A stretch of 64,000 nucleotides of DNA from Anaerolineae bacterium (GTDB lineage Bacteria > Chloroflexota > Anaerolineae > B4-G1 > DUEL01). Numbering within the stretch: the first letter of the stretch is position 1; each line of letters starts with the position of its first letter. Where the stretch lies: NCBI GenBank assembly GCA_016931695.1, contig JAFGEI010000159.1:18608-82607 (forward strand). The letters run 5' to 3'. The translations under genes and the position numbers were made by a program. Of this stretch, positions 39,027 to 64,000 are shown in pieces. Below the pieces are notes generated by a model. That model was not told where the DNA came from. It did no database searches and saw only the letters and a program-made list of their open reading frames with translations.

Positions 39027-39051
39027 CCCGGCCTGCTTGCCTGGCCGGGTC
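39025..39051 (+). terminator. stem-loop immediately after the hdrA stop
   Basis: GACCCGGCC - 9-nt loop - GGCCGGGTC. Only a weak U-tract follows (GTTATG). Confidence 0.3.
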
Positions 39052-39092
39052 GTTATGCACGCTCGTCGGCAACTATTGAGAGGGAGGTTTCA

Positions 39093-39665: not shown

Positions 39666-39682
39666 GCTGCCAGGAGGTGTCA

Positions 39683-41097: not shown

Positions 41098-41105
41098 GGG
41101 GATGT

Positions 41106-44126: not shown

Positions 44127-44135
44127 GAGGCGCGC

Positions 44136-45452: not shown

Positions 45453-45480
45453 CGCGGAACCGCCATCCACAGGAGGCGAA

Positions 45481-46626: not shown

Positions 46627-46634
46627 GGGAAAAG

Positions 46635-48335
46635 ATGATGAGTGAGAAGTCAAAACCGCGCATCGGCGTCTATGTTTGCCACTGCGGCACCAACATTGCT
46701 GCGACGGTCGACGTGGAAGCGGTGGCCGAGTATGCCCAGAACCTGCCGGGCGTCGTGCAGGCGCGGCACTATACCTACATGTGCTCGGATCCGGGACAGA
46801 CGCTGATCAAGGAGGACTGCCGGGCATTGGGCTTGAACCGCGTCGTCGTGGCTTCTTGCTCTCCACGCATGCACGAACCGACCTTTCGCGCTGCGGCCCA
46901 GGAGGGCGGGGTCAATTCCTATCGCACCGAGATGGCCAATATCCGCGAGCAGTGCTCCTGGGTCCACCACGACAAGGAGGCGGCCACGCGCAAGGCCAAG
47001 GTGCTGGTCGCTTCGGCGGTGGCCAAGGTGACCCATCTCGAACCGCTGGAGGAGCGGGAGGCGGGCGTGCATCCGGGGACGCTCGTTATCGGCGGCGGCG
47101 TGGCCGGGCTGTCTGCCGCGCTGGACGTCGCGGAGGCTGGCTTTCCGGCCTATATCGTCGAAAAGAGCGATCGCCTGGGCGGGCACGTGGCCGAACTGGG
47201 ACACACCTTTCCCGACCTGGAGCCGACGGCGGACTGGCTGGCGCCGCTGATTCGCCGGGTGGAGGAGCACCCCGCGATCACGGTCATGCTCGACGCGCAG
47301 GTGGAAGAGGTGGCGGGCTTTGTCGGCAATTTTGAGGTTACTGTCTTGCAGGGCGGGCAGGCGCAGCAGATTGACGTGGGGACGATCGTTATCGCCACCG
47401 GCTACCAGCTTTTCGACCCCAGCCGCAAGCCCGAGTTCGGTTATGGCCGCTACCCGGGCGTGCTCACGACCTGGGAATTGGAGCAGCGGCTGGCCACGGG
47501 CGACCTGGTCGTGGCGGGCCGGGCGCCGCAGGACGTTGCCTTTATCAAGTGTGTTGGCTCCCGCGACATTCAACTGGGCAACCCCTACTGCTCGCGCGTC
47601 TGCTGCATGGTCGCGGCCAAGCAGGCCCAGATGGTGCGCCAGGCGCTGCCCGAGACGCGGGTCACCGTGTTCTACATCGACGTGCGCGCTTTTGGCAAGC
47701 GCGGCGAAGAGTTTTACGATGAGGCGCGCGAGGCCGGCGTGCGCTACCGCCGCGGCAACGTCTCCGAGGTCTATCGCCGGGGCGAGCGGCTGGTGCTGCG
47801 GGTGGAGGACACGTTCTTGCGCCGCACGGTGGAGCACGAAACGGACATGGTGGTGCTGGCGGTGGGGATGGAGCCGCGTGACGACACGGGCGTGATCTCG
47901 GCGCTGCTCAAGCTGCCGCGCTCTGCCGACGGCTTTTTCCTCGAGGCGCATCCCAAGTTGGGGCCGGTGGATACGACGACGAACGGGGTCTTTTTGGCCG
48001 GCTGCTGCCAGGCCCCCAAGGATATTCCTGATACCGTGGCCCAGGCCAAGGCGGCAGCCTCGTCGGCGCTGATCCCGTTGATTCGGGGGACGGTGCCGGT
48101 CATCTCGGAGACGGCAATTGTGGATGCCGAGCTCTGCGCCGGCTGTGGGATGTGTGTCGATGTCTGTCCCTACGGCGCGCCGGCGCTCGACCCGCTGTGG
48201 GGTGTCTCGCGCATCAATGCCGTGTTGTGTAAGGGGTGCGGCGCCTGTGCCGTGACCTGTCCGTCCAAGGCGATTTGCCTGCAGCAGTTTACGCCGGAAC
48301 AGATCATGGCCCAGGTCGACGTACTGACGGTCTAG
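46635..48335 (+). CDS. hdrA: heterodisulfide reductase subunit A (canonical)
   Basis: RIGVYVCHCGTNIAATVD, LVIGGGVAGLSAAL, AFIKCVGSRD..YCSRVCCMV, CAGCGMCVDVCPY / CKGCGACAVTCPS. The start is at ATG 46635, after the upstream stop at 46626. Confidence 0.9.
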   Translation: MMSEKSKPRIGVYVCHCGTNIAATVDVEAVAEYAQNLPGVVQARHYTYMCSDPGQTLIKEDCRALGLNRVVVASCSPRMHEPTFRAAAQEGGVNSYRTEMANIREQCSWVHHDKEAATRKAKVLVASAVAKVTHLEPLEEREAGVHPGTLVIGGGVAGLSAALDVAEAGFPAYIVEKSDRLGGHVAELGHTFPDLEPTADWLAPLIRRVEEHPAITVMLDAQVEEVAGFVGNFEVTVLQGGQAQQIDVGTIVIATGYQLFDPSRKPEFGYGRYPGVLTTWELEQRLATGDLVVAGRAPQDVAFIKCVGSRDIQLGNPYCSRVCCMVAAKQAQMVRQALPETRVTVFYIDVRAFGKRGEEFYDEAREAGVRYRRGNVSEVYRRGERLVLRVEDTFLRRTVEHETDMVVLAVGMEPRDDTGVISALLKLPRSADGFFLEAHPKLGPVDTTTNGVFLAGCCQAPKDIPDTVAQAKAAASSALIPLIRGTVPVISETAIVDAELCAGCGMCVDVCPYGAPALDPLWGVSRINAVLCKGCGACAVTCPSKAICLQQFTPEQIMAQVDVLTV

Positions 48336-48380
48336 AATTTTCTCGGTATACTCGTGTAATTTGACGTGGAGGGAAACAGC

Positions 48381-48809
48381 ATGAGCGATGAGTCGTTCGA
48401 GCCCAAGATCGTTGCTTTCCTGTGCAACTGGTGCACCTATACCGGCGCTGACCTGGCTGGCACGTCGCGCATTCAGTATCCGCCCAACGTGCGGATCATC
48501 CGCCTGATGTGTTCGGGTTCGGTGGACCCCACCTACGTGCTCAAGGCGCTCCTGGATGGCGCGGACGGAGTGTTGATCGGCGGCTGTCACCCCGGTGACT
48601 GCCACTACCAGTCGGGCAACTACAAGGCCCGGCGGCGGATCATTGCCTTGAAAGAGATTGTCAAGCAGGCCGGGCTGGACGAGGAACGGGTCTGGCTGCG
48701 CTGGGTATCGGCCTCGGAGGGGCAGCGCTTTGCCGACGTGGTGACCCAGATGGTCGGGGCCTTGAAAGAGAAGGGCCCCAATCCGCTGCGGCAGGAGTGG
48801 GCGGTATAG
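48381..48809 (+). CDS. mvhD: MvhD-like [2Fe-2S] electron-transfer protein (copy 1, all-Cys)
   Basis: PKIVAFLCNWCTYTGADLAG, YPPNVRIIRLMCSGSVD, and DGVLIGGCHPGDCHY. Confidence 0.9.
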   Translation: MSDESFEPKIVAFLCNWCTYTGADLAGTSRIQYPPNVRIIRLMCSGSVDPTYVLKALLDGADGVLIGGCHPGDCHYQSGNYKARRRIIALKEIVKQAGLDEERVWLRWVSASEGQRFADVVTQMVGALKEKGPNPLRQEWAV

Positions 48810-49958: not shown

Positions 49959-50660
49959 ATGGCAACTGAAACTCGAGTCGCTGACAACAAGATGATCCCG
50001 ATCTATATCATGGGGAAGCAGTATCTCGTTCCCCCCGCACTGACGATCATGAAAGCGATGGAGTATGCCGGCTACAAGCTGATCCGGGGGGTGGGCTGCC
50101 GCGGCGGGTTCTGCGGCGCGTGCGGCACTGCGTATCGCATTCAGGGCGATCCCAAGCTCTACTTTGGCCTGGCCTGCCAGACGGTGGTGCAGCCGGGAAT
50201 GTACCTGGCCCAACTGCCGTTTTTCCCCGCCCGGCGCGAGACGTATGACATCAGCCAGCTGGAGCCGACGGCGACGACGTTGTTCAGCCTGTACCCCGAA
50301 GTCCTGCGCTGCCTGGGCTGTGGCGCCTGCACCAAGGCTTGCCCGCAGGAAATTGACGTGCGCGACTATATGGCCGCGGCGATGCGCGGCGACCTGGCCA
50401 AGCTGGCGGACACGTCGTTTGACTGCATTATGTGCGGCCTCTGCGCGGCGCGATGCCCGGCAGAGGAGGCGCAGTATAACATCGCCATCCTTGCCCGGCG
50501 CCTGTACGGCCGCTATCTTGCCCCCCGCTCCGAGCATCTGGAAAGGCGGCTGGAAGAGATCGAGACGGGCAAGTTTACGGTCGACCTGGAAGAGTTAAAG
50601 GGGTTGGGTGAAGAGGAACTCAAGGTGCGGTACAAGGCGCGGGACATTGAACCCAAGTGA
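49959..50660 (+). CDS. succinate dehydrogenase/fumarate reductase iron-sulfur subunit-like protein
   Basis: 2Fe-2S-type CRGGFCGACG, then CLGCGACTKACP and CIMCGLCAARCP. ATG 49959 follows TAGGAGGA. Confidence 0.6.
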   Translation: MATETRVADNKMIPIYIMGKQYLVPPALTIMKAMEYAGYKLIRGVGCRGGFCGACGTAYRIQGDPKLYFGLACQTVVQPGMYLAQLPFFPARRETYDISQLEPTATTLFSLYPEVLRCLGCGACTKACPQEIDVRDYMAAAMRGDLAKLADTSFDCIMCGLCAARCPAEEAQYNIAILARRLYGRYLAPRSEHLERRLEEIETGKFTVDLEELKGLGEEELKVRYKARDIEPK

Positions 50661-50673
50661 GAGGAGTGGTAGA

Positions 50674-52281
50674 ATGAGTGGCTATCCGCCTGAAATGCAA
50701 GAATCGATTCGCTCTGTCGAGGCCACCCGCGCCCGGCGAGTGGGCGAGACCTTTCCCGCCATGAGTATGGAACAGCGCGAGAAAATCCTCAGCGGCTTTC
50801 ACCCGGACTATCGGGAAGAAACCTTTCACGCCGTGCGCGTCGGTGTCAGCAAGGGGCAGCGCATGCCGGTTGAGCTGGCCCGCGTGGTGGAAGCGCGACC
50901 ACACGTTGGCGCGGATTTCGACCTGAGCGCTCCGGTTGCCGAGACGGACGTGTTGGTGATCGGCGGGGGCGGCGGCGGGGCCTCGGCTGCCCTCCTGGCC
51001 CAGGAGAGCGGGGCCAGGGTCATCTTGGTGACCAAGCTCCGCTTCGGCGATGCCAACACGGTGATGGCCCAAGGCGGCATCCAGGCTGCCGACCGGCCGG
51101 AAGACAGCCCGTCGATTCACTACCTGGACGTGATTGGGGGCGGGCACTTTACCAACGTCCCCGACCTGGTCGAAGCGCTGGTTACGGATGCGCCATGTGT
51201 CATCAAGTGGCTCGAGGACCTGGGTATGATGTTTGATAAAGAGCCCGATGGCACGATGATGGAAGAGCACGGCGGCGGCACCAGCCGCAAGCGGATGCAC
51301 TCGGCGCGGGATTATTCGGGGGCCGAGATCATGCGCACGCTGCGGGACGAGGTGCGCAACCGGGAAGAGCATATTGCCGTCGTCGAGTTCTCGCCTGCCG
51401 TGGAGCTGGTGCTGGACGACCAGGGCCGGATTGCCGGGGCAGTGGTGGTGAACCTAGAGACCGGCGTGTACGGTTACATCAAGGCCAAGGCGGTGGTTTT
51501 GGCCACCGGCGGCGGCGGCCGGCTGCATTATCAGGACTTTCCCACGACCAACCACTATGGCGCGACGGCTGACGGCGTGGTCCTGGCCTATCGCGTTGGC
51601 GCACCGTTGGGCTACCTGGAATCGATGCAGTACCATCCCACTGGCGCGGCTTTTCCGGAACAAATCTTGGGCCTGCTGGTCACGGAAAAGGTGCGCGGGT
51701 TGGGGGCTCAACCGGTCAACAAACGCGGCGAGCAATTTGTCTACCCCCTGGAGCCGCGCGACGTGGAGGCGGCGGCGCTGATCCGCGAGTGTTCGGAGCG
51801 CGGCAATGGCGTCGTGACCCTGACTGGCCAGCCTGGCGTGTGGCTTGATTCGCCAATGATCGACATGATTCACGGTCCCGGCACGATTCAGCGTGCTTTG
51901 CCGGCGATGGTGCGCCAGTTTGCCCGCTTTGACATCGACATTGCCCAGGAACCGATCTTGGTCTACCCCACGCTGCACTATCAGAACGGCGGCGTGCGGC
52001 TGAAGGCTGACGCCTCGACCGACATACCGGGCCTTTTTATTGCCGGCGAGGTGAGCGGCGGAGTTCACGGGCACAACCGGTTGATGGGCAACAGCTTGCT
52101 GGAGATCACTGTCTTTGGCCGGCGAGCGGGCCGTACCGCCGCTCACTATGCCGGGCAGGTGATGCTGGCCGCGCCGAACCTGGCGCACGTCGCAGCCTGG
52201 AACCGGGAGATGGAGGCGGCCGGAATCGACACCGACGTCATCTCCCCCATCCTGCTGCCTGATTACGTTCATCGGGAATAG
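50674..52281 (+). CDS. FAD-binding flavoprotein of the succinate dehydrogenase/fumarate reductase/L-aspartate oxidase family
   Basis: DVLVIGGGGGGASAALLA, NTVMAQGGIQAA (no His at the covalent-FAD position), MQYHPTG, TEKVRGLGA, and IPGLFIAGEVSGGVHGHNRL. About 90-aa N-terminal extension. Confidence 0.7.
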   Translation: MSGYPPEMQESIRSVEATRARRVGETFPAMSMEQREKILSGFHPDYREETFHAVRVGVSKGQRMPVELARVVEARPHVGADFDLSAPVAETDVLVIGGGGGGASAALLAQESGARVILVTKLRFGDANTVMAQGGIQAADRPEDSPSIHYLDVIGGGHFTNVPDLVEALVTDAPCVIKWLEDLGMMFDKEPDGTMMEEHGGGTSRKRMHSARDYSGAEIMRTLRDEVRNREEHIAVVEFSPAVELVLDDQGRIAGAVVVNLETGVYGYIKAKAVVLATGGGGRLHYQDFPTTNHYGATADGVVLAYRVGAPLGYLESMQYHPTGAAFPEQILGLLVTEKVRGLGAQPVNKRGEQFVYPLEPRDVEAAALIRECSERGNGVVTLTGQPGVWLDSPMIDMIHGPGTIQRALPAMVRQFARFDIDIAQEPILVYPTLHYQNGGVRLKADASTDIPGLFIAGEVSGGVHGHNRLMGNSLLEITVFGRRAGRTAAHYAGQVMLAAPNLAHVAAWNREMEAAGIDTDVISPILLPDYVHRE

Positions 52282-52379
52282 GGGGAAGAGCCGGCCCGGC
52301 TAGCTGAAAGATGCGAGATCTGCCGCATTAACTGTACCCAAAAACGGGTATGGTGCTTGAGGAAATAGCGAGGGATTTT

Positions 52380-55300
52380 ATGCCATTCGGAACAAGACAA
52401 GACTCGGTGGGGAATGTGCTGGTCGTTGGCGGCGGCGTGGGGGGCATGCGGGCGGCAATGGACCTGGCCGAGGCGGGGCTAAAAGTTTACCTGATCGAAA
52501 ACCTGCCCTGGTTGGGGGGACGGGTCGCCCAGCTGGGATACATGTTCCCGACCCACGACTGCGTTCTGTGCCGCGGTTCGTCGGATCACGGCTATGGTTG
52601 CACCCGGCCGGCGATCTCTCCCGCCTTTCTCGATTTCAACCGTCATCCCAACATCGAGATCATGGCCAATACAGACCTGATCAAAGCCGAAGGGCAGGCG
52701 GGGGATTTTACCGTTACCGTCCGCCATCGCCCGACACACGTCGATAACGCGCGCTGCATCAACTGCAGCCTCTGTACGGCGGTCTGCCCGGTCGATCTAC
52801 CCAGCCCCTTTGAGGCCGGTCTGGCAGCGCGAAAGGCGGTCTACAAGATGGCCCCCCGCGCGCTGCCGGATTCCTACGTGGTCGACAAGGTGCCGCGCTG
52901 TGATACCTGCCGCCGCTGCGAATCTATCTGCCCTACCGGGGCGATTGACCTGGATGAGGAACCCTACGAAGTCGATCTGTCTGTTGGGGCAATTATCCTC
53001 TCGGTTGGCTACACCCTCTCCGATCCTGGCGAGTACGAGGAGCTGGGCTACGGTCGCTACCCGAACGTCATTCACTCTATGCAGTACGAGCGGCTCGTCA
53101 GCCGCTCCGGGCCGACGGAGGGCGTCGTTCTGCGGCCTTCGGATGGCAAGCTGCCGAAGCGTATCGCGTGGCTGCAGTGTATTGGTTCCCGCGACGAAAA
53201 GTATCCCTACTGCTCCTCCATCTGCTGCATGTACTCGACCAAAGAGGCTATCCTGGCGAAGGAGCGCATTGAGGGTGTGCATTGCCAGGTCTTTATCATG
53301 GACGAACGGGCCTTTAACAAGGAGTTTAACGCCTATTACGAGCAGGCGCGGACCCACTACGAGGTGGAGTATACGCGCTGTCGCATTCAGCAGGTGCTCC
53401 AAGACCCCAAGACCCACGATCTCATCCTGCGCTATCCTGACGAGGGCGGCGTGGTCAAGGAAGAGCGCTTTGACATCGTGGTGTTGTCCGTTGGCTCGCG
53501 CCCGCCGTCGACTGCCGAGGAGCTGGCCCAGGTGCTGGGCATCGAGCTGAATCCGTACGGCTTTTGCGAGACGGACCCCTTTGCCCCGCTACAGACCAGC
53601 GAGCCGGGCATCTATGTCTGTGGCACCTTTTCTTCGCCCAAAGAGATCGCCGAGACCATCCTCGACGCGGCTGGCGCGGCCGGCGACGTGATGCGGCTGA
53701 TGCGCCGCCACCTTGGTGCTGCCCCCTCCAGCCGCGAGCATCCCTTTCTCTGGCAACCGAACGGCATGGTTCCCGAGCGGGACGTGAGCGGAGAGCCGCT
53801 GCGGATCGGCGTCTTTCTCTGCCGCTGTCGCCCGACGCTGGACGGCATCGTCCAGGTTGACGAACTGGACCGGTTTGCCCAGGGGTTGGAGGACGTGGTG
53901 CACGTACAGCCGCTCGACTATGGCTGCTTCGAGGCGGGCCTGGAGGCAATTCGCACGGCGATTGAGGACCTGCGCCTCAACCGCGTGGTGATCGGCGCCT
54001 GCAGCCACCGCACCCACGAACCGCTCTTTCAGCGCACGGTGCGGGAAGCGGCGCTGAATCCGTACCTGCTGGAGATGGTCAACTTGCGCGAGCAGTGTGC
54101 GTGGGTTCACGTTGGCGATCCGGATCGAGCGACTCGCAAAGCGCAAGAGATGATCCGCATGGCAGTTGCGCGGGTTCGCGTCGCCCAGCCGGTACACAAG
54201 CTGGCTGTCCAAACCGAGCCCTCAGCCCTGGTCATCGGCGGGGGGGTGTCGGGGATGACCGCCGCCCTCTCTATCGCCGATGCCGGCTACAACGTCTTTT
54301 TGGTGGAGCGGGATGCAGAGCTGGGGGGCAACTTGCGTCACGTTTACTACACTGCCAGCGGGCAGAATCCGCAGCGGCTGTTGCGTGATTTGGTGAACCG
54401 GGTCATCGGGCACGAACGAGTGCAGGTCTTTACCCGCACCAAAGTCGTTTCTCACGACGGGTATGTGGGGGCGTTTCGCTCCTTGCTGCGCCGGCAGCCG
54501 CGCGACAACCAGGACCCGGTTGAGGTAGAGATTTCCCACGCGGTGACGGTCGTGGCGACGGGCGGGCAGGAATGGCGCGGCGATGTCTACCTGCTCGGTC
54601 AAGACCCGCGCGTCGTCACGACGTTGGAACTGGAAGACACCATCGCCCATCGCCCCGAACAAATTGTCGGCATGAAGCAGGCGGTCTTTATCCAGTGCGT
54701 GCGCCCGCCGAGCGAGGTCGAGTACTGCAGCCGCATCTGTTGCACCAATACCATCAAGAACGCGATCCGGATCAAGATGCTCAATCCCGACTGCCAGGTT
54801 GTGGTTCTCTACAAGGATATTATCACCTATGGCTTCCGCGAGGCGTATTATACCGAAGCCCGCCGACGGGGGGTGCTCTTTATGCGCTACGACGACGAGC
54901 ACTTGCCCGGCATTCGCCAGGAGGACGGGCAGCTGCGGCTCGTCGCCTGGGATGCGGTCCTGGGACAAGATGTCCTGTTCCAGCCCGACCTGGTGGTCCT
55001 GAGCATGGCAATCGAGCCTTCCGCGGGGATCGAGGAGCTGGCGCAGGTGTTGGGGGTGCCGCTTTCTGTCGAGGGCTTTTTTATGGAGGCCCATCTCAAG
55101 ATGCGGCCAATGGACTTTGTGAAGGAGGGGCTCTTTTTCTGCGGCATCGCCCATTACCCCAAGTTCCTGGACGAGTGTATCACCAATGCCCAGGCAACTG
55201 CCGGGCGGGCGCTCACGATTCTGACCAAGGATCGCCTCTATGTGGGCGGCGTCGTGGCCGAGGTGGACCAGTCGCTCTGTGTCGGCTGCCTGACCTGCGT

Positions 55301-55508
55301 GCGCACCTGTCCCTTTGAGATTCCCAAGGTGCGGTATTCGGACGTGGGAGTGGGCAAGATCAAGGGCGCGGCCTACATCGAGCCGGCCTTGTGCCAGGGC
55401 TGCGGGACGTGCGTGGCCGAGTGCCCGGCCAAGGCGATCCAGTTGGCGACGTATCGCGACGAGCAGATTATGGCCCAGCCGCTGGGGAGTTGGGTAAAAG
55501 ATGCGTGA
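52380..55508 (+). CDS. double-module HdrA-like flavoprotein (~1042-1052 aa)
   Basis: VLVVGGGVGGMRAAM and ALVIGGGVSGMTAAL FAD folds. AWLQCIGSRD..YCSSICCMY and VFIQCVRPPSEVEYCSRICC. Central RIGVFLCRCRPTLDG. C-terminal CVGCLTCVRTCPF / CQGCGTCVAECPA. The start is either 52380 (AGGGA upstream) or 52350. Confidence 0.8.
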   Translation: MPFGTRQDSVGNVLVVGGGVGGMRAAMDLAEAGLKVYLIENLPWLGGRVAQLGYMFPTHDCVLCRGSSDHGYGCTRPAISPAFLDFNRHPNIEIMANTDLIKAEGQAGDFTVTVRHRPTHVDNARCINCSLCTAVCPVDLPSPFEAGLAARKAVYKMAPRALPDSYVVDKVPRCDTCRRCESICPTGAIDLDEEPYEVDLSVGAIILSVGYTLSDPGEYEELGYGRYPNVIHSMQYERLVSRSGPTEGVVLRPSDGKLPKRIAWLQCIGSRDEKYPYCSSICCMYSTKEAILAKERIEGVHCQVFIMDERAFNKEFNAYYEQARTHYEVEYTRCRIQQVLQDPKTHDLILRYPDEGGVVKEERFDIVVLSVGSRPPSTAEELAQVLGIELNPYGFCETDPFAPLQTSEPGIYVCGTFSSPKEIAETILDAAGAAGDVMRLMRRHLGAAPSSREHPFLWQPNGMVPERDVSGEPLRIGVFLCRCRPTLDGIVQVDELDRFAQGLEDVVHVQPLDYGCFEAGLEAIRTAIEDLRLNRVVIGACSHRTHEPLFQRTVREAALNPYLLEMVNLREQCAWVHVGDPDRATRKAQEMIRMAVARVRVAQPVHKLAVQTEPSALVIGGGVSGMTAALSIADAGYNVFLVERDAELGGNLRHVYYTASGQNPQRLLRDLVNRVIGHERVQVFTRTKVVSHDGYVGAFRSLLRRQPRDNQDPVEVEISHAVTVVATGGQEWRGDVYLLGQDPRVVTTLELEDTIAHRPEQIVGMKQAVFIQCVRPPSEVEYCSRICCTNTIKNAIRIKMLNPDCQVVVLYKDIITYGFREAYYTEARRRGVLFMRYDDEHLPGIRQEDGQLRLVAWDAVLGQDVLFQPDLVVLSMAIEPSAGIEELAQVLGVPLSVEGFFMEAHLKMRPMDFVKEGLFFCGIAHYPKFLDECITNAQATAGRALTILTKDRLYVGGVVAEVDQSLCVGCLTCVRTCPFEIPKVRYSDVGVGKIKGAAYIEPALCQGCGTCVAECPAKAIQLATYRDEQIMAQPLGSWVKDA

Positions 55509-55968
55509 GGAGGGGAGCTTGACTGACGCAGGAAATAACGGCCAGGGGGAATTTGAGCCCGAGATCACGGCATTTACCTGTATCTACTGTGGCTACATGG
55601 CAGCAGATACCGCCGGCGCGCTGCGGCTCAAGTATCCGCCCAACGTGAAACTGGTACGCATGCCGTGCACTGGCAAGGTCGATGTGCGTTACATCTTGCA
55701 GGCCTTTGAACAGGGCGCGGACGGCGTCTATATCGTCGCTTGCCCAATTGGCAACTGTCACCATATTCATGGCAATGAGCGTGCAGTGGCGCGCGTCAAG
55801 TACACCAAAAGGCTCCTGGACGAGGTGGGGGTTGGAGGGGATCGGCTAGAGATTCTCTTTGCTTCGGGTGGAATGGGGGCGACCTTTGCTGAATCCGCTC
55901 ACGCGATGGTGGAGCGGGTCAAGCAGATAGGGCCGAATCCATTGAAGCTGGCGCCCGGAGCCGGGTAA
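55501..55968 (+). CDS. mvhD: MvhD-like protein (copy 2, all-Cys)
   Basis: PEITAFTCIYCGYMAADTAG, YPPNVKLVRMPCTGKVD, and DGVYIVACPIGNCHH. The start overlaps the upstream stop by 8 nt. Confidence 0.85.
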   Translation: MREEGSLTDAGNNGQGEFEPEITAFTCIYCGYMAADTAGALRLKYPPNVKLVRMPCTGKVDVRYILQAFEQGADGVYIVACPIGNCHHIHGNERAVARVKYTKRLLDEVGVGGDRLEILFASGGMGATFAESAHAMVERVKQIGPNPLKLAPGAG

Positions 55969-56006: not shown

Positions 56007-59000
56007 ATGAGAGACGACGTGACTCAGCAAGAAAAAGTTGTCGGTGCTGCGATGGTCGTCGGCGGCGGAATCGCCGGCATTCAGGCGTCCCTCGACCTGG
56101 CCGAGGCGGGCTTCAAGGTCTACCTGGTGGAGCTTCAGTCGGCGATTGGCGGCCACATGGCGCAGTTGGACAAGACCTTCCCCACCAACGATTGCTCGAT
56201 GTGCATCATCAGCCCCAAGCTGGTCGAGACGGGGCGCCATCGCAATGTCGAGCTGCTGGTTGACAGCGAGGTCATTGGCGTGCGGGGAGAAGCGGGGAAT
56301 TTTTCCGTTCGCCTGCGCACCAGGCCCCGCTACATCGACCTGGACAGGTGCACCGGCTGCGGCGAGTGCGCCGAGGCTTGCCCGGTAGTGATTCCAAACT
56401 ATTTTGACCAGGGGTTGGCAGACCAGCGCGCGGTGTACAAGCTCTACCCCCAGGCGGTTCCAAATGCCTACGCTATCGAAAAACTCGGCATCGCTCCTTG
56501 CCGCGATGCCTGCCCAACCGGCCAGCGCGTACAGGGTTATATCGCATTGATCCGCGAAGGACGGTATCACGATGCACTGCGCGTGATCAAGGAGGATAAT
56601 CCGTTTCCCGGTATCTGTGGACGAATCTGTAACCACCGCTGTGAGGATGCTTGCAACCGGCGCAAACTCGACGAGGCAATCAACATCCGCGCCCTGAAGC
56701 GGTTTGTCACCGACACGGTCTATGCCGAACCGCGAATGCCCCCGCAGCCGGCGGAGCGAAAATATGCCGAGCGCGTAGCCGTGATCGGCGCGGGCCCCTG
56801 TGGACTGACTGCCGCTCAAGACTTGTGTCAGCTGGGTTATGGGGTCGCTGTTTTTGAAGCGCTCCCCGTGGCTGGTGGAATGTTGCGGGTGGGTGTGCCC
56901 GAGTATCGCCTGCCAGCCTCGATTGTCGACCGGGAAGTGCAGGATATTGTCGATCTGGGGGTCGAGCTGCGGCTGAATACTTTTGTCGATAACCTGGACG
57001 ACATCTTTGACGAGGGCTTTCATGCGGTCTTGATTGCAGTTGGTGCGCACGAGGGAATTCGACCGCCTATTCCAGGGGCAGATTTAAATGGCGTTTTGAT
57101 TAACACCACCTTTTTGCGTGACGTCCGCCTGGGGAACCTGCCGTCTTTGGGCGAACGGGTGGCCGTCGTTGGGGCGGGGGACGTTGCGATGGACGTGGCG
57201 CGCACGGCTGTGCGCATGGGGGCGGAGGTTCACGTCTATTATCGCCGCACTCGCGGGGAGGCGACGGCGGGCGCGGAAGAACTGCGGCACGCAGAAGAGG
57301 AAGGCGTCAACTTTCATTTCCAGACCACTCCAATCGAGATTGTCGGCGACGAGGAGAGGTGTGTGGTGGGGATGAAGTGTGTTCGTACTGAGCAGGGGCT
57401 TGTTGACGAAACAGGCCGGAGTCGGCCTGTACAGCTGCCTGGCTCGGAGCATTTTGTTCCTTGTGACACGGTGATCTTTTCTATCGGTCAACGGGCTGGC
57501 CTGGCTTTTATCCCCGAAAGCGCCGGCGTCGGCATCACCGGCCAAGCCACGATTGCGGTCAATCCCAACACCCTGGCGGCAACCCGTTCGGGGGTCTTTG
57601 CCGCTGGAGACGCCACTACCGGTACTTCTTTTGTCATCGAAGCTGTGGCGGCGGGACATCGGGCGGCCGAGTCGATCGATCGCTATTTGCAGGGAAAAGA
57701 GATGGAGCCGCCGCCCAAGCCCCAGCTGCCGGTCGTAGAGTTGAATCGCCTCGAAATTGAGGAGCGAGTAAAGAGCGGCCAGGTTTGTGTTCAACCCCGC
57801 GTGCCAATGGACGAACTGCCGGTCGATCAGCGCTCGCAAACCTTTGAGGAAGTAGTTGCCGGTTACACTCACGAGCAGGCGCAGGCCGAGGCGGCGCGCT
57901 GCCTGGCGTGCGGCATCTGTTCCGAGTGCCTGAGCTGCGTATATGCCTGCCAGGCCGAGGCAATCGATCACGACATGGTAGAGCAGGTGCAGGACTTGAA
58001 CGTCGGGGCAATCCTCCTCGCCCCGGGCTTTGCGCCCTACGACGCCGCCCGTTCGGAGGAGTATGGCTGGGGGCGCTATGCTAACGTCGTGACCTCCCTC
58101 CAGTTCGAGCGGCTGCTCAGCGCCTCCGGCCCAACCCACGGTCACGTCAGGCGCCCGTCCGATGGGGCGACGCCGCGGCGAATTGCCTTTCTCCAGTGCG
58201 TCGGCTCGCGGGATCAAGAACACAATTATTGCTCCTCCGTCTGTTGCATGTACGCGACCAAGGAGGCGATCCTGGCCTGCGAGCACGAGCCGGATACCCG
58301 TATCTCGGTCTTTATGATGGACATGCGCTCCTTCAGCAAGGGCTATGAAGAATACTACCGCCGCGCGCGAGAGCGGTACGGCGTTCGCTACATTCGCTCG
58401 CGCGTCTCGGCGATCGTGGAGGACCCCCAGAGCAGGGATCTGCGGATTCGCTATGTCGACGAGGAGAACGCCGCCGCGCCGATCGTCGAAGAGACCTTTG
58501 ACATGGTCGTGCTGGCGGTGGGGATGGAGATTCCGGAGGCCGTGCGCGACCTGGGCCGCCGGTTGGGAATCGAGCTGGACGGCAATGGCTTTTGCCGCAC
58601 CTTGCCCTTCGCCCCGCTGCAGACCAGCCGCCCCGGCATATATGCGCTGGGCCCCTTCCGCGAGCCGAAGGATATCCCCGAATCGGTCGTGGAGGCAAGC
58701 GGGGCGGCGGGCGTGGCGGGCGCGTTGTTGGCGCCCGCCCGCTGGACGCTGGCCGATGTGCCACCCGACATTCCCGAGCGGGACGTGACGGGGGAGGAGC
58801 CGCGCATCGGCGTCTTTGTCTGTCACTGCGGTTCCAACATTGCCGGCGCGTTGGATGTACCCAAGGTGGCCGAGTACGCCGCCACACTGCCAGGAGTTGT
58901 GCATGCCGAGAGCAATCTCTACACCTGCTCCCAGGATACGGTTGCCCACATCACCGAGGTGACGCGGGAGCAGGGCCTCAACCGCGTCGTCGTCGCTTCT

Positions 59001-60512
59001 TGCAGTCCCTTGACCCACGAACCACTTTTCCAGGACGCCATCCGCGAAGCAGGATTGAACCCCAACTTGTTCGAGATGGCCAACATCCGCAATCAATGCT
59101 CCTGGGTCCATCCCGATAACTGGGATGTTGCCACTGAGAAAGCGCAGGACCTGGTGCGCATGGCCGTGGCCAAGGCGGCGCAGCTGGAACCGCTGTACAA
59201 GACGACAGTAAAGGTCGAAAAAGCAGCGCTGATCGTTGGCGGCGGCGCTGCGGGGATGACCGCCGCGCTGACGCTGGCGCAGCAGGGCTTTCCCGTCCAT
59301 CTGGTCGAGCGGGAGAATCGCTTGGGTGGCAACTTGCTGCAGCTGCGCCATTATCTCCAGGAAGCGACGGGCGAGGGAGAGCGAATCTGGCTCGATCCCC
59401 AGGCCTATGCCCAAGAGTTGGTGCGGCAGGTCGAAGCGGAACCGCTGGTTACGGTCCACCTGAATACCCATCTGGTGGATACCGGCGGCTTTTTGGGCCA
59501 CTTTACCTCGCGTCTCCAGGGCCCCGATGGGGAACTGGAAATTTCCCACGGCGCGGCGATCATCGCCACCGGCGGGCAGGAGTATCGCGGCCCCGAGTAT
59601 GGCTATGGCAGCGATTCGCGCATCGTCACCCAACAAGAGTTCGAGCATCTGTTGAGCGCGAGGCAGGACTTGCCCGACTCGGTGGCGATGATCCAGTGTG
59701 TGGGACCGGCGGAAGCGTTTTGTTCCCGCATCTGTTGTACCACGGCGCTCAAAAACGCACTGATGCTCAAGCGGCACAAGCCGGAGGCGCAGGTGGTTGT
59801 CCTCTACCGGGACGTGCGCACCTTTGGTTTCAAGGAGCGGGTCTACCAGGAGGCGCGGCGGGCTGGGGTGTTGTTCGTCCGCTTCGAGTTTGACCGCAAG
59901 CCCGAGGTGCAAATTGGCGACGACGGGCTGCGAGTCGCGGTCTGGGAGCACAGCCTGGGACAAGAAGTCATTCTGCGGCCCGACATGCTCGTCTTGAGCA
60001 TGCCGGTGGTGCCTTCCGAAGGAGCGCAGGAATTGGCAAGCCGGCTCAGGATTCCGGTCGACCTGGACGGCTTTTTCCTCGAGGCCCACGTCAAGCTGCG
60101 ACCGGTCGATTTCTCTTCCGACGGCTTTTTCCTGGCTGGCATGGCTCACTATCCCAAGTTTCTCGACGAAGCGGTAGCCCAGGCCCAGGCGGCTGCGGCC
60201 CGCGCGGCGACGATCTTGAGCCGGGATGAGCTGGAGGTCGGCGGCATTGTCGCCCAGGTCGATGAGGAGAGATGCGTCGGCTGCCTGACCTGTGTGCGTA
60301 TTTGCCCCTACCACGCGCCCCGGGTCCAGGCCGACTTGCCGGGAGTGGGGTCGATTATGGGTGCGGCCTACATCGAGCCGGCCCAGTGTCACGGCTGTGG
60401 CATCTGTGTCGCAGAGTGTCCGGCCAAGGCAATCCAGCTGCTCCATTACCGGAGCGAGCAGATGGAGGCCAAGATCGCCGCGCTGATGCTGCCATCGCCG
60501 ATCTGTAGTTGA
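56007..60512 (+). CDS. giant HdrA-GltD-HdrA fusion flavoprotein (HdrL-type, 1501 aa)
   Basis: HdrA FAD module (AMVVGGGIAGIQASL). Inserted NADPH-dependent glutamate-synthase small-subunit-like unit (CRDACPTGQRVQGYI..EDNPFPGICGRICNHRCEDAC, VAVIGAGPCGLTAA, VAVVGAGDVAMD). AFLQCVGSRD..YCSSVCCMY. Second N-domain RIGVFVCHCGSNIAGALD and second FAD module ALIVGGGAAGMTAAL. C-terminal CVGCLTCVRICPY / CHGCGICVAECPA. Confidence 0.85.
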   Translation: MRDDVTQQEKVVGAAMVVGGGIAGIQASLDLAEAGFKVYLVELQSAIGGHMAQLDKTFPTNDCSMCIISPKLVETGRHRNVELLVDSEVIGVRGEAGNFSVRLRTRPRYIDLDRCTGCGECAEACPVVIPNYFDQGLADQRAVYKLYPQAVPNAYAIEKLGIAPCRDACPTGQRVQGYIALIREGRYHDALRVIKEDNPFPGICGRICNHRCEDACNRRKLDEAINIRALKRFVTDTVYAEPRMPPQPAERKYAERVAVIGAGPCGLTAAQDLCQLGYGVAVFEALPVAGGMLRVGVPEYRLPASIVDREVQDIVDLGVELRLNTFVDNLDDIFDEGFHAVLIAVGAHEGIRPPIPGADLNGVLINTTFLRDVRLGNLPSLGERVAVVGAGDVAMDVARTAVRMGAEVHVYYRRTRGEATAGAEELRHAEEEGVNFHFQTTPIEIVGDEERCVVGMKCVRTEQGLVDETGRSRPVQLPGSEHFVPCDTVIFSIGQRAGLAFIPESAGVGITGQATIAVNPNTLAATRSGVFAAGDATTGTSFVIEAVAAGHRAAESIDRYLQGKEMEPPPKPQLPVVELNRLEIEERVKSGQVCVQPRVPMDELPVDQRSQTFEEVVAGYTHEQAQAEAARCLACGICSECLSCVYACQAEAIDHDMVEQVQDLNVGAILLAPGFAPYDAARSEEYGWGRYANVVTSLQFERLLSASGPTHGHVRRPSDGATPRRIAFLQCVGSRDQEHNYCSSVCCMYATKEAILACEHEPDTRISVFMMDMRSFSKGYEEYYRRARERYGVRYIRSRVSAIVEDPQSRDLRIRYVDEENAAAPIVEETFDMVVLAVGMEIPEAVRDLGRRLGIELDGNGFCRTLPFAPLQTSRPGIYALGPFREPKDIPESVVEASGAAGVAGALLAPARWTLADVPPDIPERDVTGEEPRIGVFVCHCGSNIAGALDVPKVAEYAATLPGVVHAESNLYTCSQDTVAHITEVTREQGLNRVVVASCSPLTHEPLFQDAIREAGLNPNLFEMANIRNQCSWVHPDNWDVATEKAQDLVRMAVAKAAQLEPLYKTTVKVEKAALIVGGGAAGMTAALTLAQQGFPVHLVERENRLGGNLLQLRHYLQEATGEGERIWLDPQAYAQELVRQVEAEPLVTVHLNTHLVDTGGFLGHFTSRLQGPDGELEISHGAAIIATGGQEYRGPEYGYGSDSRIVTQQEFEHLLSARQDLPDSVAMIQCVGPAEAFCSRICCTTALKNALMLKRHKPEAQVVVLYRDVRTFGFKERVYQEARRAGVLFVRFEFDRKPEVQIGDDGLRVAVWEHSLGQEVILRPDMLVLSMPVVPSEGAQELASRLRIPVDLDGFFLEAHVKLRPVDFSSDGFFLAGMAHYPKFLDEAVAQAQAAAARAATILSRDELEVGGIVAQVDEERCVGCLTCVRICPYHAPRVQADLPGVGSIMGAAYIEPAQCHGCGICVAECPAKAIQLLHYRSEQMEAKIAALMLPSPICS

Positions 60513-60533
60513 GCGCTTGCGGGTGAGGTCGAT

Positions 60534-60959
60534 ATGAATGATCTGACGTACGAGCCCAAAATTCTCGCCTTTTGCTGCCGTCACTGCGCCTACGCGGCGG
60601 CCGACCTGGCCGGGGCGATGCGCCTGCGCTACCCGCCCAACGTGCGCGTTGTCGAGGTGCCCTGCACTGGCCGGGTTGACGTGGTCGAGGTGTTGCACGC
60701 TTTTGAGCGGGGCATCGACGGCGTCGTCGTCGCCGGCTGACTGGAGGGCGAGTGTCATTACCTGGAAGGTAATACAAATGCCCGGCGCAGGATCGAGTAT
60801 CTGGCCCACATTCTGGACCAGGTTGGATTGGGCGGCGAGCGAGTGCGGATGGTCAATCTCTCCGCTGCCATGGCGGTCCATTTCGTTGCCATGGTGGAAG
60901 AAATGACCGAGACTTTGTCGAACTTGGGCCCGAACCCCCTTTGTGAAGCGGGGGAGTAA
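60534..60959 (+). CDS. mvhD: MvhD-like protein (copy 3), predicted selenoprotein with UGA-Sec at 60738-60740
   Basis: The 68-aa track ORF stops at TGA exactly where copies 1 and 2 have Cys (DGVLIGGC-HPGDCHY and DGVYIVAC-PIGNCHH versus DGVVVAG[TGA]LEGECHY). The same frame stays open for 72 more codons with an MvhD-like sequence (CHYLEGNTNARRRIEYLAHILDQVGLGGERVRMVNLSA) to TAA 60957-60959. Confidence 0.75.
60753..60776 (+). other. putative bacterial SECIS hairpin
   Basis: Starts 12 nt after the UGA. UGU-(bulged C)-AUUACC / loop UGGAA / GGUAAU-ACA gives a 9-bp stem with a GG-containing apical loop. A possible 3-bp lower stem is GGC(60747-49)/GCC(60780-82). Confidence 0.5.
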
Positions 60960-61042
60960 AGAATTTGGCCGGCCGGGCGGAGGGTCGAATTGGCCGCTAA
61001 AATCGAGTCTGCCCGAGCCCATGAATAAAAACGGAGGTTGCA

Positions 61043-61720
61043 ATGATTGTCGGCGAACAGAAACCGCTGGAAGAGATCGTCGGGTTGTTGGGCGATGCCC
61101 GCAAGGTACTGGTGCTGGGCTGCGGCACGTGTGTGACCGTTTGCTTTGCCGGAGGGGAAAAGGAGGTCGGCATCCTGGCCTCGATGCTGCGAATGAAAAG
61201 CAAGTTGGCCGGCCACCCGATGGAGGTCGACGAGGCGACCGTCCAGCGGCAGTGTGAATGGGAATACATCGACCCGTTGCGGGAGCGGCTGTCCCAGTAC
61301 GACGCCGTGCTCAGCCTGGCTTGTGGCATTGGCGTGCAGGCGATGAACGAGCGCTTCCCCAAGCACTTGACCCTACCGGGAATCAACACCACCTCTCTCA
61401 GCCTGCCGACAGAACAGGGGGTGTGGGAAGAGCGCTGCCAGGCCTGCGGCGATTGCATCCTGGGCATCACGTTTGGCATCTGCCCGATCACCCGCTGTTC
61501 CAAGCAGCTCTTGAACGGGCCCTGCGGCGGGTCTCAGCGCGGGGTCTGCGAGATCAACCCCGATATCCCTTGTGCCTGGCAGCTGATCTGGGAGCGCGCG
61601 GTCGCGCTGGGGCAGGTAGAGCGCTTGCTGGAGATTCAGGCGGCCAAGGATTGGTCGCGTAGCCGAGATGGCGGGCCGCGCAAGATCGTGCGCGAGGACC
61701 TGCAGCTCGAGACAGCTTAG
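61043..61720 (+). CDS. metV: methylene-THF reductase-associated zinc-ribbon/Fe-S subunit MetV (MTHFR C-terminal-domain protein)
   Basis: VLVLGCGTCVTVCFAGG, CQACGDCILG..GICPITRCSKQLLNGPCGG and CAWQLIWERA are typical of MetV as in the Moorella metVF pair. ACGGAGG RBS. Confidence 0.85.
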   Translation: MIVGEQKPLEEIVGLLGDARKVLVLGCGTCVTVCFAGGEKEVGILASMLRMKSKLAGHPMEVDEATVQRQCEWEYIDPLRERLSQYDAVLSLACGIGVQAMNERFPKHLTLPGINTTSLSLPTEQGVWEERCQACGDCILGITFGICPITRCSKQLLNGPCGGSQRGVCEINPDIPCAWQLIWERAVALGQVERLLEIQAAKDWSRSRDGGPRKIVREDLQLETA

Positions 61721-61735
61721 CGAGGTGGGCGAACG

Positions 61736-62719
61736 ATGACAGAGCGAACAAACGGTTATAAATCGGGCAGCAACCTGGAAAAAATTCTGCGCGCCGGGCA
61801 CTTTGCTGTGACCGGGGAGTTGGGGCCGCCGCAGAGCGCTGACGGCGAAGAAATTCGCCACAAGGCCCGGCTGCTCAAGGGCGTGGTCGATGCGGTGAAC
61901 ATTACCGACAACCAGACCGCCATCGTGCGCATGTCCAGTATCGGCTCTGGCGTGCTGGCCATCGACGAGGGGCTGGAGCCAATCGTGCAGATGACCTGCC
62001 GTGATCGCAACCGGCTGGCGATCCAGGCGGACCTGTTGGGAGCCTACGCCCTGGGCATGCGCAACCTGCTTTGCCTGACCGGTGATCACCAGAGTTTTGG
62101 CAATCATCCGACGGCCAAGAACGTCCACGATCTGGACTCGGTGCAGCTGGTGCACATGGTCAAGAACATGCGGGACGAGGCCTGCTTCCAGTGCGGTGAT
62201 GCGATCAAGGGCACGGCGCCGCGCATGCTCATCGGCGCGGCGGTCAACCCCTTTGCCGATCCCTTCGAATTTCGTCCCTATCGGCTGGCAAAAAAGGTCG
62301 CCGCCGGGGCGGATTTTGTCCAGACCCAGCTCATTTACGACATCCCCCGCTTTCGCGAGTATATGGCCAAGGTCGTCGACATGGGTCTGCACGAAAAGGT
62401 CTATATCCTGGCTGGAGTGGGCCCCATCAAATCCTCCGGGGCGGCGCGCTACATGCGCGACAAGGTGCCGGGGATGATCGTCCGTGACGAGTACGTCGAA
62501 CGCATGAACGCAGTGGTCGCCGATATTCCAAAGGAAGAGAAAAAAGCGCGCCGTGATACCTGGGCTCAAGAGGGCATCCAAATCTGTGTCGAGCAGATTC
62601 AAGAAATCCGCGAGATCGAAGGAGTTGCCGGAGTGCACATCATGGCGATTGAGTGGGAGGAGGCGGTGCGGTCGATTGTCGAAGGGACGGGGCTGTTCCC
62701 CCGTCCAGCAGTGGAGTAG
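61736..62719 (+). CDS. metF: methylenetetrahydrofolate reductase
   Basis: FAVTGELGPP, AVNITDNQTAIVRMSS, LLCLTGDH, and FVQTQLIYD. 327 aa, directly after metV. Confidence 0.9.
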   Translation: MTERTNGYKSGSNLEKILRAGHFAVTGELGPPQSADGEEIRHKARLLKGVVDAVNITDNQTAIVRMSSIGSGVLAIDEGLEPIVQMTCRDRNRLAIQADLLGAYALGMRNLLCLTGDHQSFGNHPTAKNVHDLDSVQLVHMVKNMRDEACFQCGDAIKGTAPRMLIGAAVNPFADPFEFRPYRLAKKVAAGADFVQTQLIYDIPRFREYMAKVVDMGLHEKVYILAGVGPIKSSGAARYMRDKVPGMIVRDEYVERMNAVVADIPKEEKKARRDTWAQEGIQICVEQIQEIREIEGVAGVHIMAIEWEEAVRSIVEGTGLFPRPAVE

Positions 62720-62723
62720 GGAT

Positions 62724-63938
62724 ATGGCGATTACGTTGCATACAGACCTGGCCAAGTTTATCCGCGAGGAATGCGGCGAGAACGTCTACCTTTGCTACCA
62801 GTGTGAACGTTGCTCCTCTGGTTGCCCGACCGCGGCGGCGATGCGTTATCGCCCGGCCCAGATGATGCGCCTGGCCCAGTTCGGCCTGACCGACCAGATT
62901 GAGATGGATGCCAGCATCTGGCGCTGCCTTGGCTGCGATACCTGCACCGCTCACTGCCCACATAACCTGAGCGTCCGCCGCCTGGTGGAGGTCATGCGGC
63001 AGAAGGTGATGCAGGAGCGATACCTGGCCGGCGGCAATGGCATGTTGGGCGATGACGAGGCGCTGCAAAAGGGCATGCGGGCTCTCGGCATGCTGGGTTC
63101 TCGCATCGACGCGTACCACAACGTCTCGGGTGAGGATAACGCGTCGCGCCTGTCGTGGACAGAGAACCTGGCGGAAAAGCCGGAGGGATTGGTCGGCGAT
63201 ACGGGGGCAGAGATGGCCTACTTTGTCGGCTGCGTCTCGGCCATGTTCCCCATGAGCTATGGGATTCCCCAGGGCTTTGCAGCAGTGCTGGGAAAAGCCC
63301 AGGTCCGCTTCACAACCCTCGGCGGCGACGAATGGTGCTGCGGTTTCCCGCAGATGATGGCGGGACAGCTCGAGCAGGCAAAGGAGTCGATCTATCACAA
63401 CGTCGAGCGGATGGAGGCGCTGGGGGTGCCGCGCCTGGTGACGACTTGCCCGTCTTGTTATCACATGTGGCACCACGTCTATCCCGAGATTATGGGCCGT
63501 GACCTTGCCTTTGAGGTGGTCCACGCCGTACAAGTGCTGCGCGACCTGGCGGTGGAAGAGCGCCTCTCCTTTGGAGAGGCCAAGCGCCCGGAGATTGTCA
63601 CCTATCACGACCCTTGCGACCTGGGCCGCAAGGCGGGGATCTATGACGAGCCGCGCGAGGTGCTGCAGCGCATCCCGGGCTATACGTTCGTCGAGATGCA
63701 GCAGTCGAGGGAGCATGCCCTCTGCTGCGGCGGCGGCGGCGATCTGGAGACCTTTGACCCCGACCTGGTGCAGGATGTAGCAGCGCGGCGTATCGCCCAG
63801 GCGGTAGAGATTGGCGCGTCGGTGCTGGTGTCGGCCTGTCCCCAGTGTGTCAGGACCCTGTCCAAAGCAGCGCGGGCTGAACGGGTGCGCGTGCGGGTGA
63901 TGGACCTGACCCAATTCGTTGAAATGGCGCTGGTGTGA
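62724..63938 (+). CDS. HdrD-like Fe-S protein (ferredoxin + two CCG domains)
   Basis: CYQCERCSSGCPT and CLGCDTCTAHCPH, then YFVGCVSAMF, EWCCGFP, YHDPCDLGRKAG and ALCCGGGGD. The start is ATG 62724, not the track start 62553. Confidence 0.8.
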   Translation: MAITLHTDLAKFIREECGENVYLCYQCERCSSGCPTAAAMRYRPAQMMRLAQFGLTDQIEMDASIWRCLGCDTCTAHCPHNLSVRRLVEVMRQKVMQERYLAGGNGMLGDDEALQKGMRALGMLGSRIDAYHNVSGEDNASRLSWTENLAEKPEGLVGDTGAEMAYFVGCVSAMFPMSYGIPQGFAAVLGKAQVRFTTLGGDEWCCGFPQMMAGQLEQAKESIYHNVERMEALGVPRLVTTCPSCYHMWHHVYPEIMGRDLAFEVVHAVQVLRDLAVEERLSFGEAKRPEIVTYHDPCDLGRKAGIYDEPREVLQRIPGYTFVEMQQSREHALCCGGGGDLETFDPDLVQDVAARRIAQAVEIGASVLVSACPQCVRTLSKAARAERVRVRVMDLTQFVEMALV

Positions 63939-63946
63939 GGTAAAAG

Positions 63947-64000
63947 ATGAGTGGCTTGCAAAAGATTGCAGTTACCGGAAAGGGTGGGGTGGGCAAGACG
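63947..64000 (+). CDS. CooC/MinD-type P-loop ATPase, 3'-truncated at window edge
   Basis: MSGLQKIAVTGKGGVGKT carries a deviant Walker A like cooC at 32084. Only 18 codons are visible. Confidence 0.5.
   Translation, partial: MSGLQKIAVTGKGGVGKT

Follow-up and report, generated by a model that had tools for sequence, protein, structure and literature searches.

The window, by which we mean the whole 64,000-nucleotide (nt) stretch analysed here, carries towards its end a gene block, hdrL-mvhD-metV-metF-hdrCB, with a selenocysteine (Sec) codon in mvhD, that is probably the Anaerolineae counterpart of the type IV (Hdr-type) methylene-tetrahydrofolate (methylene-THF) reductase known from Moorella thermoacetica, serving the Wood-Ljungdahl pathway. 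It corresponds to positions 18608-82607 of contig C208 of a fragmented 3.87-Mb metagenome-assembled genome (MAG) that is 93% complete, the nearest relatives of which are MAGs of the Anaerolineales, Anaerolineae and Chloroflexota. Judged by sequence, no subunit type of the Moorella complex is missing and the predicted cofactor motifs are intact, and tblastn over the whole genome found one metV, one metF and one hdrL, so that MetVF is the only methylene-THF reductase of this genome. The block and the gene that follows it, cooC, are laid out as follows.

56007-60512, + strand: hdrL, 1501 amino acids (aa); Pyr_redox_2 E=1.7e-58, HdrA2 model 948 bits in four stretches
60534-60959, + strand: mvhD with selenocysteine (U69), 141 aa; FlpD E=2.9e-48, VhuD model 160 bits; [2Fe-2S] electron-transfer subunit
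60738-60773, + strand: UGA codon and hairpin resembling a selenocysteine insertion sequence (SECIS); TGA 60738-60740, arms ATTACCT 60757-60763 and AGGTAAT 60767-60773, loop GGA 60764-60766
61043-61720, + strand: metV; PF12225 E=7.9e-35; Fe-S subunit of a MetVF-type methylene-THF reductase
61736-62719, + strand: metF; PF02219 E=1e-36; catalytic flavoprotein of methylene-THF reductase
62724-63938, + strand: hdrCB fusion ("HdrD-like"), 404 aa; CCG E=1.1e-32 plus Fer4
63947-64000 in the window, ending at window-equivalent position 64744 on the contig, + strand: cooC, 265 aa; CbiA/ParA fold

A preliminary description of this stretch, made from the sequence, had listed these six genes on one strand, and they are found as it gave them, with gaps of 21, 83, 15, 4 and 8 nt in block order and very low E-values in the domain scans; a third-position GC of 0.74-0.82 marks the block frames as coding. 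The listed open reading frame (ORF) of hdrCB reaches back to a GTG at 62553, and an ATG at 62724 sits 4 nt past the metF stop. A scan for promoters and terminators gave counts no higher than those of shuffled sequence, and the intergenic gaps of the block are without any such site.

The anatomy of HdrL was mapped with solved methanogen HdrA chains as the reference. Residues 15-159 correspond to HdrA 154-298, covering the start of a TrxR-like FAD domain along with the inserted ferredoxin domain's first half; residues 163-645 resemble NfnB/GltD-type proteins (4ylf_B, 5jca_L, 9n5u_A, glutamate synthase small chain), with a Pfam/NCBIfam scan placing Fer4_20 plus a GltD-like region at 163-565; and at 637-855 (HdrA 300-517) the inserted ferredoxin and TrxR-like domains resume. 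A second HdrA follows, with an MvhD-like N-domain and the opening stretch of another FAD domain at 924-1084 (HdrA 4-164) and the last part of the TrxR-like domain plus a C-terminal 2x[4Fe-4S] domain at 1326-1494 (HdrA 494-653), this second TrxR-like domain being without an inserted ferredoxin domain. The GltD/NfnB-like module, for which FAD, NAD(P)H and 2x[4Fe-4S] are predicted, splits the inserted ferredoxin domain, and of the Rossmann motifs at residues 19, 261, 389 and 1078 those at 261 and 389 lie inside it, alongside the Fer4_20 cysteines. The HdrA-GltD-HdrA fusion of 1501 aa that had been proposed is borne out by both the domain scans and the HdrA mapping. Furthermore, the E/K signature of the bifurcating HdrA flavin, for which the reference is E356/K409 of M. 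thermolithotrophicus HdrA, recurs in both halves of HdrL (E701/K752 and E1213/K1249), E701 and K752 being invariant in 80/80 homologues sampled.

After the NAD(P)H Rossmann strand, HdrL 411-414 (about 57237-57248) reads YYRR, and the homologues split at this position into those with xYRR (56 of the 79 tallied) and those with xCLE (23). An arginine pair after the Rossmann strand is typical of NADPH-binding GltD/NfnB proteins and an acidic residue is typical of NADH sites. By these general Rossmann-fold rules the YYRR of HdrL hints at NADPH use, and the split suggests that the two groups may be NADPH- and NADH-specific forms of one enzyme.

That HdrA should carry a GltD-type NAD(P)H site of its own had been taken in the preliminary description as the mark of an architecture different from that of Moorella, a claim that does not hold as the Moorella HdrA has the same layout (PMC9430772). 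The HdrA of M. thermoacetica is a protein of 162.8 kDa in which aa 922-1487 form a second HdrA without an inserted ferredoxin domain, with E/K pairs at E696/K750 and E1204/K1246 and a predicted eight [4Fe-4S] clusters, three FAD and one NAD(P)H site, and it oxidises NADH at 190 U/mg with benzyl viologen (PMC9430772). Compared through the published residue numbers, the second HdrA begins at 922 in Moorella and at 924 in HdrL, the E/K landmarks are at most 9 positions apart, and the 1501 aa of HdrL stand against at least 1487 aa; compared through the published description, both proteins have the TrxR-like domain and a ferredoxin domain split by a GltD FAD/NAD(P)H module. An HdrL beside metVF repeats the arrangement known from Moorella and is no new architecture. 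The Moorella complex, MetFV-HdrABC-MvhD (Mock et al. 2014, as related in PMC9430772, PMC8760232 and PMC5861303), shares with the window block six protein functions, the pairing of MetF with MetV and the Wood-Ljungdahl context. The two differ in gene order, which is hdrCBA-mvhD-metVF in Moorella whereas the window has hdrCB, as a single polypeptide, 3' of metF; in the selenocysteine of the window MvhD, unlike the Moorella set; in the NADPH-like motif of HdrL, whereas the Moorella enzyme oxidises NADH; and in the extra tandem HdrA and MvhD pair found upstream in the window.

The protein encoded 3' of metF had previously been described as an HdrD-like protein that replaces HdrBC. Its residues 9-109 align with solved HdrC chains and 312-376 with HdrB, the HdrC part holding two complete CX2CX2CX3C motifs and the HdrB part two complete CCG motifs (C170-X34-CC-X35-CXXC and C298-X35-CC-X36-CXXC). 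Because every HdrC and HdrB cluster motif is retained, the protein is, on its motifs, a fusion of HdrC and HdrB and not their replacement, so that of the earlier claim the fusion is real and the replacement falls away. Nor is the fusion new, as an hdrC-hdrB translational fusion was published for the hdrA-mvhD-metVF clusters of the marine Anaerolineae DscP3, An-B22 and SM23_63 (Sewell, Kaster and Spormann 2017, PMC5736913). Compared by description only, those clusters come from the same class as the window and share with it the hdrCB fusion and its association with metVF and mvhD; the HdrL-type layout, the Sec codon and the second tandem HdrA upstream are not singled out in that paper as far as it was read.

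Homologous loci were sampled with HdrL as the query and one genome per species, which gave more than 554 related stretches, and the best 80 loci were analysed, the order of neighbouring genes being read by tblastn and iterated hidden Markov model searches over every ORF of the sampled loci. Downstream synteny was counted only where at least 2.4 kb of sequence lay 3' of hdrL, and counts of CCG neighbours were restricted to loci with room on both flanks. HdrL identity in these loci is 58-78% for Anaerolineae/Chloroflexota and about 48-51% for Desulfobacterales, Syntrophaceae and other Thermodesulfobacteriota. With such room, hdrL is followed by mvhD-metV-metF in 8/9 Chloroflexota loci and in 29/42 other loci, mostly of Desulfobacterota, and a CCG protein is adjacent in 5/5 Chloroflexota and 28/30 other loci. 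In Anaerolineae this CCG protein is encoded 3' of metF; in Desulfobacterota it lies directly 5' of hdrL, either as split hdrC and hdrB or as an HdrD that frequently falls into two ORFs. The window metF is 54-85% identical to the metF found 3' of hdrL in other loci, and MetV occurs in 26 of the 31 genomes of the family and order to which the window belongs, hdrL directly adjoining metV in at least 16 of those; counted over related genomes, the figure is at least 16 of 30. The block is conserved in related genomes, as its earlier proposal as a unit implied, and because this linkage of genes extends across Chloroflexota and Desulfobacterota there is strong comparative support that HdrL, MvhD, MetVF and HdrCB would work together.

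Several variations on this arrangement were seen. In L016, L024, L027, L038, L053, L067 and most Desulfobacterota loci, hdrCB-hdrL is preceded, about 2.5 kb 5' of hdrL, by a gene of about 292 aa for a distant MetF-like protein with 23-24% identity to the window MetF; this gene is present even where metV-metF does not follow downstream, and hdrL loci that lack metVF downstream usually have it. Two successive metV-metF pairs lie between mvhD and hdrCB in two Anaerolineae loci, L012 (about 15400-18700) and L015 (about 15100-19000), matching the duplicated MetVF of DscP3 reported in 2017 (PMC5736913). A 10-kb contig of a Methanoregula sp. MAG (L013) encodes an HdrL that is 60% identical to that of the window and is preceded by bacterial-style hdrC-hdrB and MetF-like genes, for which a lateral transfer or an error of binning may be responsible.

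The selenocysteine of MvhD had been claimed from the in-frame TGA, and a re-covering of the mvhD region by the source DNA run showed zero differences. The 7-bp hairpin ATTACCT-GGA-AGGTAAT begins 19 nt after this TGA and folds at -20.9 kcal/mol (z = -2.1). All 7/7 pairs of the hairpin are kept in 12/12 homologues that have TGA, and 7 pairs are found in 0/65 homologues with Cys, where the mean is 3.9 pairs. The Desulfobacterota form, ATTTCCT/AGGAAAT, contains a compensatory change of A:T to T:A, in which a Tyr-to-Phe replacement goes together with a synonymous Gly codon. Among 57 orthologues beside hdrL codon 69 is Cys in 46 and TGA in 11, and in the paralogue upstream in the window VACPIGNCHH aligns with VAGULEGECHY, with Cys at the Sec position. 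The window MvhD matches solved MvhD chains at E=3e-39, and U69 aligns with a non-standard residue X in 9sfi_K, a solved VhuD-like chain. The genome also encodes Sec machinery: tRNA-Sec (C15), SelB (351.8 bits, cut-off 242) and SelA (558.6 bits, cut-off 268). Because the hairpin is specific to homologues with UGA and tRNA-Sec, SelA and SelB are present, the reading of mvhD as a gene for a genuine selenoprotein, which the preliminary description had put forward, is well supported. Sec-MvhD/VhuD is a known type of selenoprotein, listed for Desulfobacterium autotrophicum (PMC2702500). In Desulfobacterota loci (for example L030, L031 and L052) the MvhD ORFs are short (about 114 aa) and the HdrD upstream is regularly split into two ORFs (239 + 178 aa), which suggests further in-frame UGA (Sec) codons there.

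The name HdrL was coined for D. autotrophicum HRM2 (Strittmatter et al. 2009, PMC2702500). In the HdrA-NfnB fusions that ANME-1 encodes, the inserted ferredoxin domain is likewise where the insert lies (Chadwick et al. 2022, PMC9012536). Like the HdrL of the window, the proteins of D. autotrophicum and ANME-1 are HdrA/GltD (NfnB-like) fusions followed by mvhD, and several are selenoproteins. However, those reports tie HdrL to sulfite/DsrC reduction or to coenzyme M/coenzyme B chemistry, whereas here and in the sampled Desulfobacterota its usual neighbour is metVF. A role of HdrL in DsrC/sulfite reduction, as proposed for D. autotrophicum, was considered for the window and rejected, as dsrA was not found in the genome.

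If the block is a type IV reductase as we suppose, NAD(P)H would be oxidised at the GltD-like module of HdrL and the electrons would pass through Fe-S clusters to the HdrA flavins with the E/K signature, to MvhD and to HdrCB, and then by way of MetV to the MetF flavin, which would reduce methylene-THF. A second redox partner would be reduced or oxidised by bifurcation or confurcation, and this could be ferredoxin, or a disulfide at the non-cubane clusters of HdrCB, or a quinone; a quinone has been proposed as the third partner for Sporomusa ovata and Moorella (PMC8760232, PMC9430772, PMC13040438). As of 2026 the third redox partner of type IV methylene-THF reductase is still to be identified (PMC13040438), and a search of the PDB returned no structure with MetV.

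A number of points weigh against this interpretation. Bifurcation has so far been demonstrated for no type IV enzyme, ferredoxin is not the acceptor in Moorella, and the S. ovata complex is loosely bound and partly membrane-associated (PMC8760232, PMC9430772, PMC13040438). The architectural match of HdrL with the Moorella protein is drawn from published positions and description, and 13/42 hdrL loci outside the Chloroflexota have no metVF downstream. The genome as a whole has at least 7 MvhD genes and many HdrA and CCG paralogues, and with so many of them adjacency alone is no proof of partnership. Finally, the one metatranscriptome from the study that produced the source DNA yielded no reads of this organism, only fragments of 30-45 nt from relatives.

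The preliminary description favoured a self-contained NAD(P)H/ferredoxin-coupled reductase of non-Moorella architecture, in which HdrL stands for HdrA, HdrD for HdrBC, and the CooC-like protein belongs to the supercomplex. It would draw on the fused HdrC-HdrB, on a gene order unlike the hdrCBA-mvhD-metVF of Moorella, on the Sec in MvhD and on cooC lying 8 nt 3' of the block, yet the GltD-type NAD(P)H module sits in the same place in Moorella HdrA (PMC9430772), the HdrCB fusion with all cluster motifs retained has been published for Anaerolineae (2017, PMC5736913), and CooC is a nickel chaperone of carbon monoxide dehydrogenase (CODH; E=2e-43) that follows the block in only three of the best 80 loci (L004, L009 and L017), so that we regard this proposal as highly improbable. 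It is also improbable, if a little less so, that MetVF acts alone as a type II ferredoxin-dependent reductase, with hdrL, mvhD and hdrCB encoding a separate NAD(P)H:disulfide/ferredoxin oxidoreductase and their adjacency reflecting the packing of redox genes. The window does contain at least 5 further HdrA-type genes, two MvhD and several HdrB/HdrC/HdrD-type genes away from metVF, MetVF dimers purified from several acetogens work with reduced ferredoxin in vitro (PMC8760232), and the 83-nt spacer between mvhD and metV is the longest gap of the block. However, that spacer has no terminator-like site, the order hdrL-mvhD-metV-metF is kept in Desulfobacterota amid different surrounding genes, and in S. 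ovata and Moorella pull-downs and co-enrichment connect MetVF with Hdr and MvhD subunits (PMC9430772), S. ovata MetVF pulling down HdrA, HdrB and MvhD (PMC9430772, PMC8760232).

A third alternative keeps the complex and reverses it, with methyl-THF oxidised in acetate or methyl-group catabolism and confurcation with a low-potential donor yielding NAD(P)H. This is possible, although we think it the doubtful direction of the two. The block is often found in Desulfobacterota that are complete oxidisers and use the pathway in reverse, the cluster around the block here also encodes fumarase and a TfrA-like flavoprotein, and with Rnf and dsrA not found and one [NiFe] hydrogenase found, an acetogenic energy scheme is not evident. 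The sequence, however, fixes no direction, the failure to find dsrA and RnfD in a genome that is fragmented and 93% complete is weak evidence, and marine Anaerolineae with this cluster have been interpreted as homoacetogens (PMC5736913).

Of the steps of the Wood-Ljungdahl pathway, the one catalysed by type IV methylene-THF reductase is understood least, and the locus leaves that picture unchanged. Taken as a Moorella-type enzyme, what the locus adds is that the giant HdrA of this type is widespread together with MetVF in Chloroflexota and Desulfobacterota, that MvhD shows a clean Sec/Cys switch with a covarying SECIS, and that there is a lineage-specific second tandem HdrA, a candidate ferredoxin-facing module; with its fused HdrCB, Sec-MvhD and extra tandem HdrA it would be a natural variant of the type IV enzyme. 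This second HdrA and its MvhD lie immediately upstream of the block.

52350-55508, + strand: tandem HdrA ("HdrAA"), 1052 aa; the HdrL layout minus the GltD insert
55501-55968, + strand: Cys-MvhD paralogue; FlpD E=2e-42; 8-nt overlap with the HdrAA stop

HdrAA maps to the HdrA reference unbroken at 23-403 (HdrA 146-515), then at 483-654 (HdrA 3-174) and 867-1045 (HdrA 474-647), and it is 48% identical to HdrL residues 638-1489. Because it has the HdrL layout but no GltD insert, it keeps an intact inserted ferredoxin domain. The order HdrAA-MvhD-HdrL recurs in L004, L008, L009, L011, L012, L017, L020, L055 and in the genomes of relatives, the pair preceding hdrL in most loci of Anaerolineae and of relatives and not in Desulfobacterota. 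It resembles the tandem-TrxR HdrA without a GltD module of S. ovata, which belongs to an Hdr-type methylene-THF reductase, HdrCBA-MvhD-MetVF (Kremp, Roth and Mueller 2022, PMC9430772). S. ovata, however, has only this GltD-less HdrA, with five [4Fe-4S] predicted, whereas the window HdrAA keeps the inserted ferredoxin domain and coexists with HdrL.

HdrAA and the Cys-MvhD are probably co-expressed with the block as part of the same unit, and they may form a ferredoxin-facing second input or output module of the reductase. HdrA dimerises in methanogen complexes. One can go further and picture a two-HdrA machine, in which HdrL would take up NAD(P)H with its ferredoxin domain blocked by the GltD insert, and HdrAA would pair with HdrL and supply the ferredoxin-reducing exit; we hold this to be rather unlikely. 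Were it true, ferredoxin would be the missing second acceptor, to which a partner HdrA, absent from Moorella or encoded elsewhere there, would give access.

The gene that follows hdrCB had been counted in the preliminary description as a CooC-like member of the supercomplex. Its best match in the PDB is CooC1 of C. hydrogenoformans (3kje; E=2.3e-43, residues 6-241), the P-loop GKGGVGKT (a deviant Walker A) is present, and at the CXC nickel site GSGCMCPE aligns with GSQCYCRE. Among the best 80 loci the gene stands after the block only in the three already named, which are of Anaerolineae/Chloroflexota, and a second CooC/AcsF-like gene adjoins the acetyl-CoA synthase (ACS) genes in the window. 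From these features CooC is most likely a nickel-insertion ATPase that matures CODH/ACS and travels with the Wood-Ljungdahl cluster, and not a subunit of the reductase; being a true CooC nickel chaperone whose conservation stops at the closest relatives, it is implausible as a subunit of the supercomplex. Of the supercomplex, then, hdrL, mvhD, metV, metF and the CCG gene stand as a conserved block and as a candidate bifurcating methylene-THF reductase, and CooC drops out.

The block forms the tail of a co-directional Wood-Ljungdahl and Hdr super-cluster of about 47 kb. This opens with fhs, acsA/cooS, acsB, acsD, acsC, RACo, the cooC/acsF-like gene, acsE and folD, in that order, after which come hdrC, hdrB, a class-V aminotransferase gene, hdrA and a GNAT gene, and then another hdrC-hdrB pair, a tandem HdrA of 1006 aa with an HdrA fragment and an HdrD-like gene behind it, and then hdrA and mvhD. 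Past two Fe-S/unknown genes and the gene for a TfrA-like flavoprotein come HdrAA and the Cys-MvhD, and after them the block, which is followed by cooC, a C39-like peptidase gene, fumarase alpha and beta and an H+-pyrophosphatase gene. The Hdr gene sets between folD and the block span 34799-48809 and include a 638-aa HdrA with its own MvhD. The single [NiFe] hydrogenase found in the genome is encoded on another contig.

The TfrA-like gene, at 50608-52281 upstream of the block, encodes a fumarate-reductase flavoprotein (NF004900, 333 bits, below the cut-off), and genes for the alpha and beta subunits of a class I fumarase lie downstream of the block (L003 2098-3600, window-equivalent 65491-66993). 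A reading of HdrCB as TfrB of thiol:fumarate reductase was rejected as the primary one, as TfrB is its best NCBIfam match but scores 147 bits against a cut-off of 385 bits, and it is further weakened by the CCG protein being kept beside hdrL/metF where TfrA is absent. With the TfrA-like protein, the fumarase and the TfrB match of HdrCB, a link resembling thiol:fumarate reductase inside the Wood-Ljungdahl cluster is conceivable. Between cooC and the fumarase genes, the C39-like peptidase gene (L003 1341-2087, window-equivalent 64734-65480) overlaps the cooC stop and is kept in the closest relative, L004.

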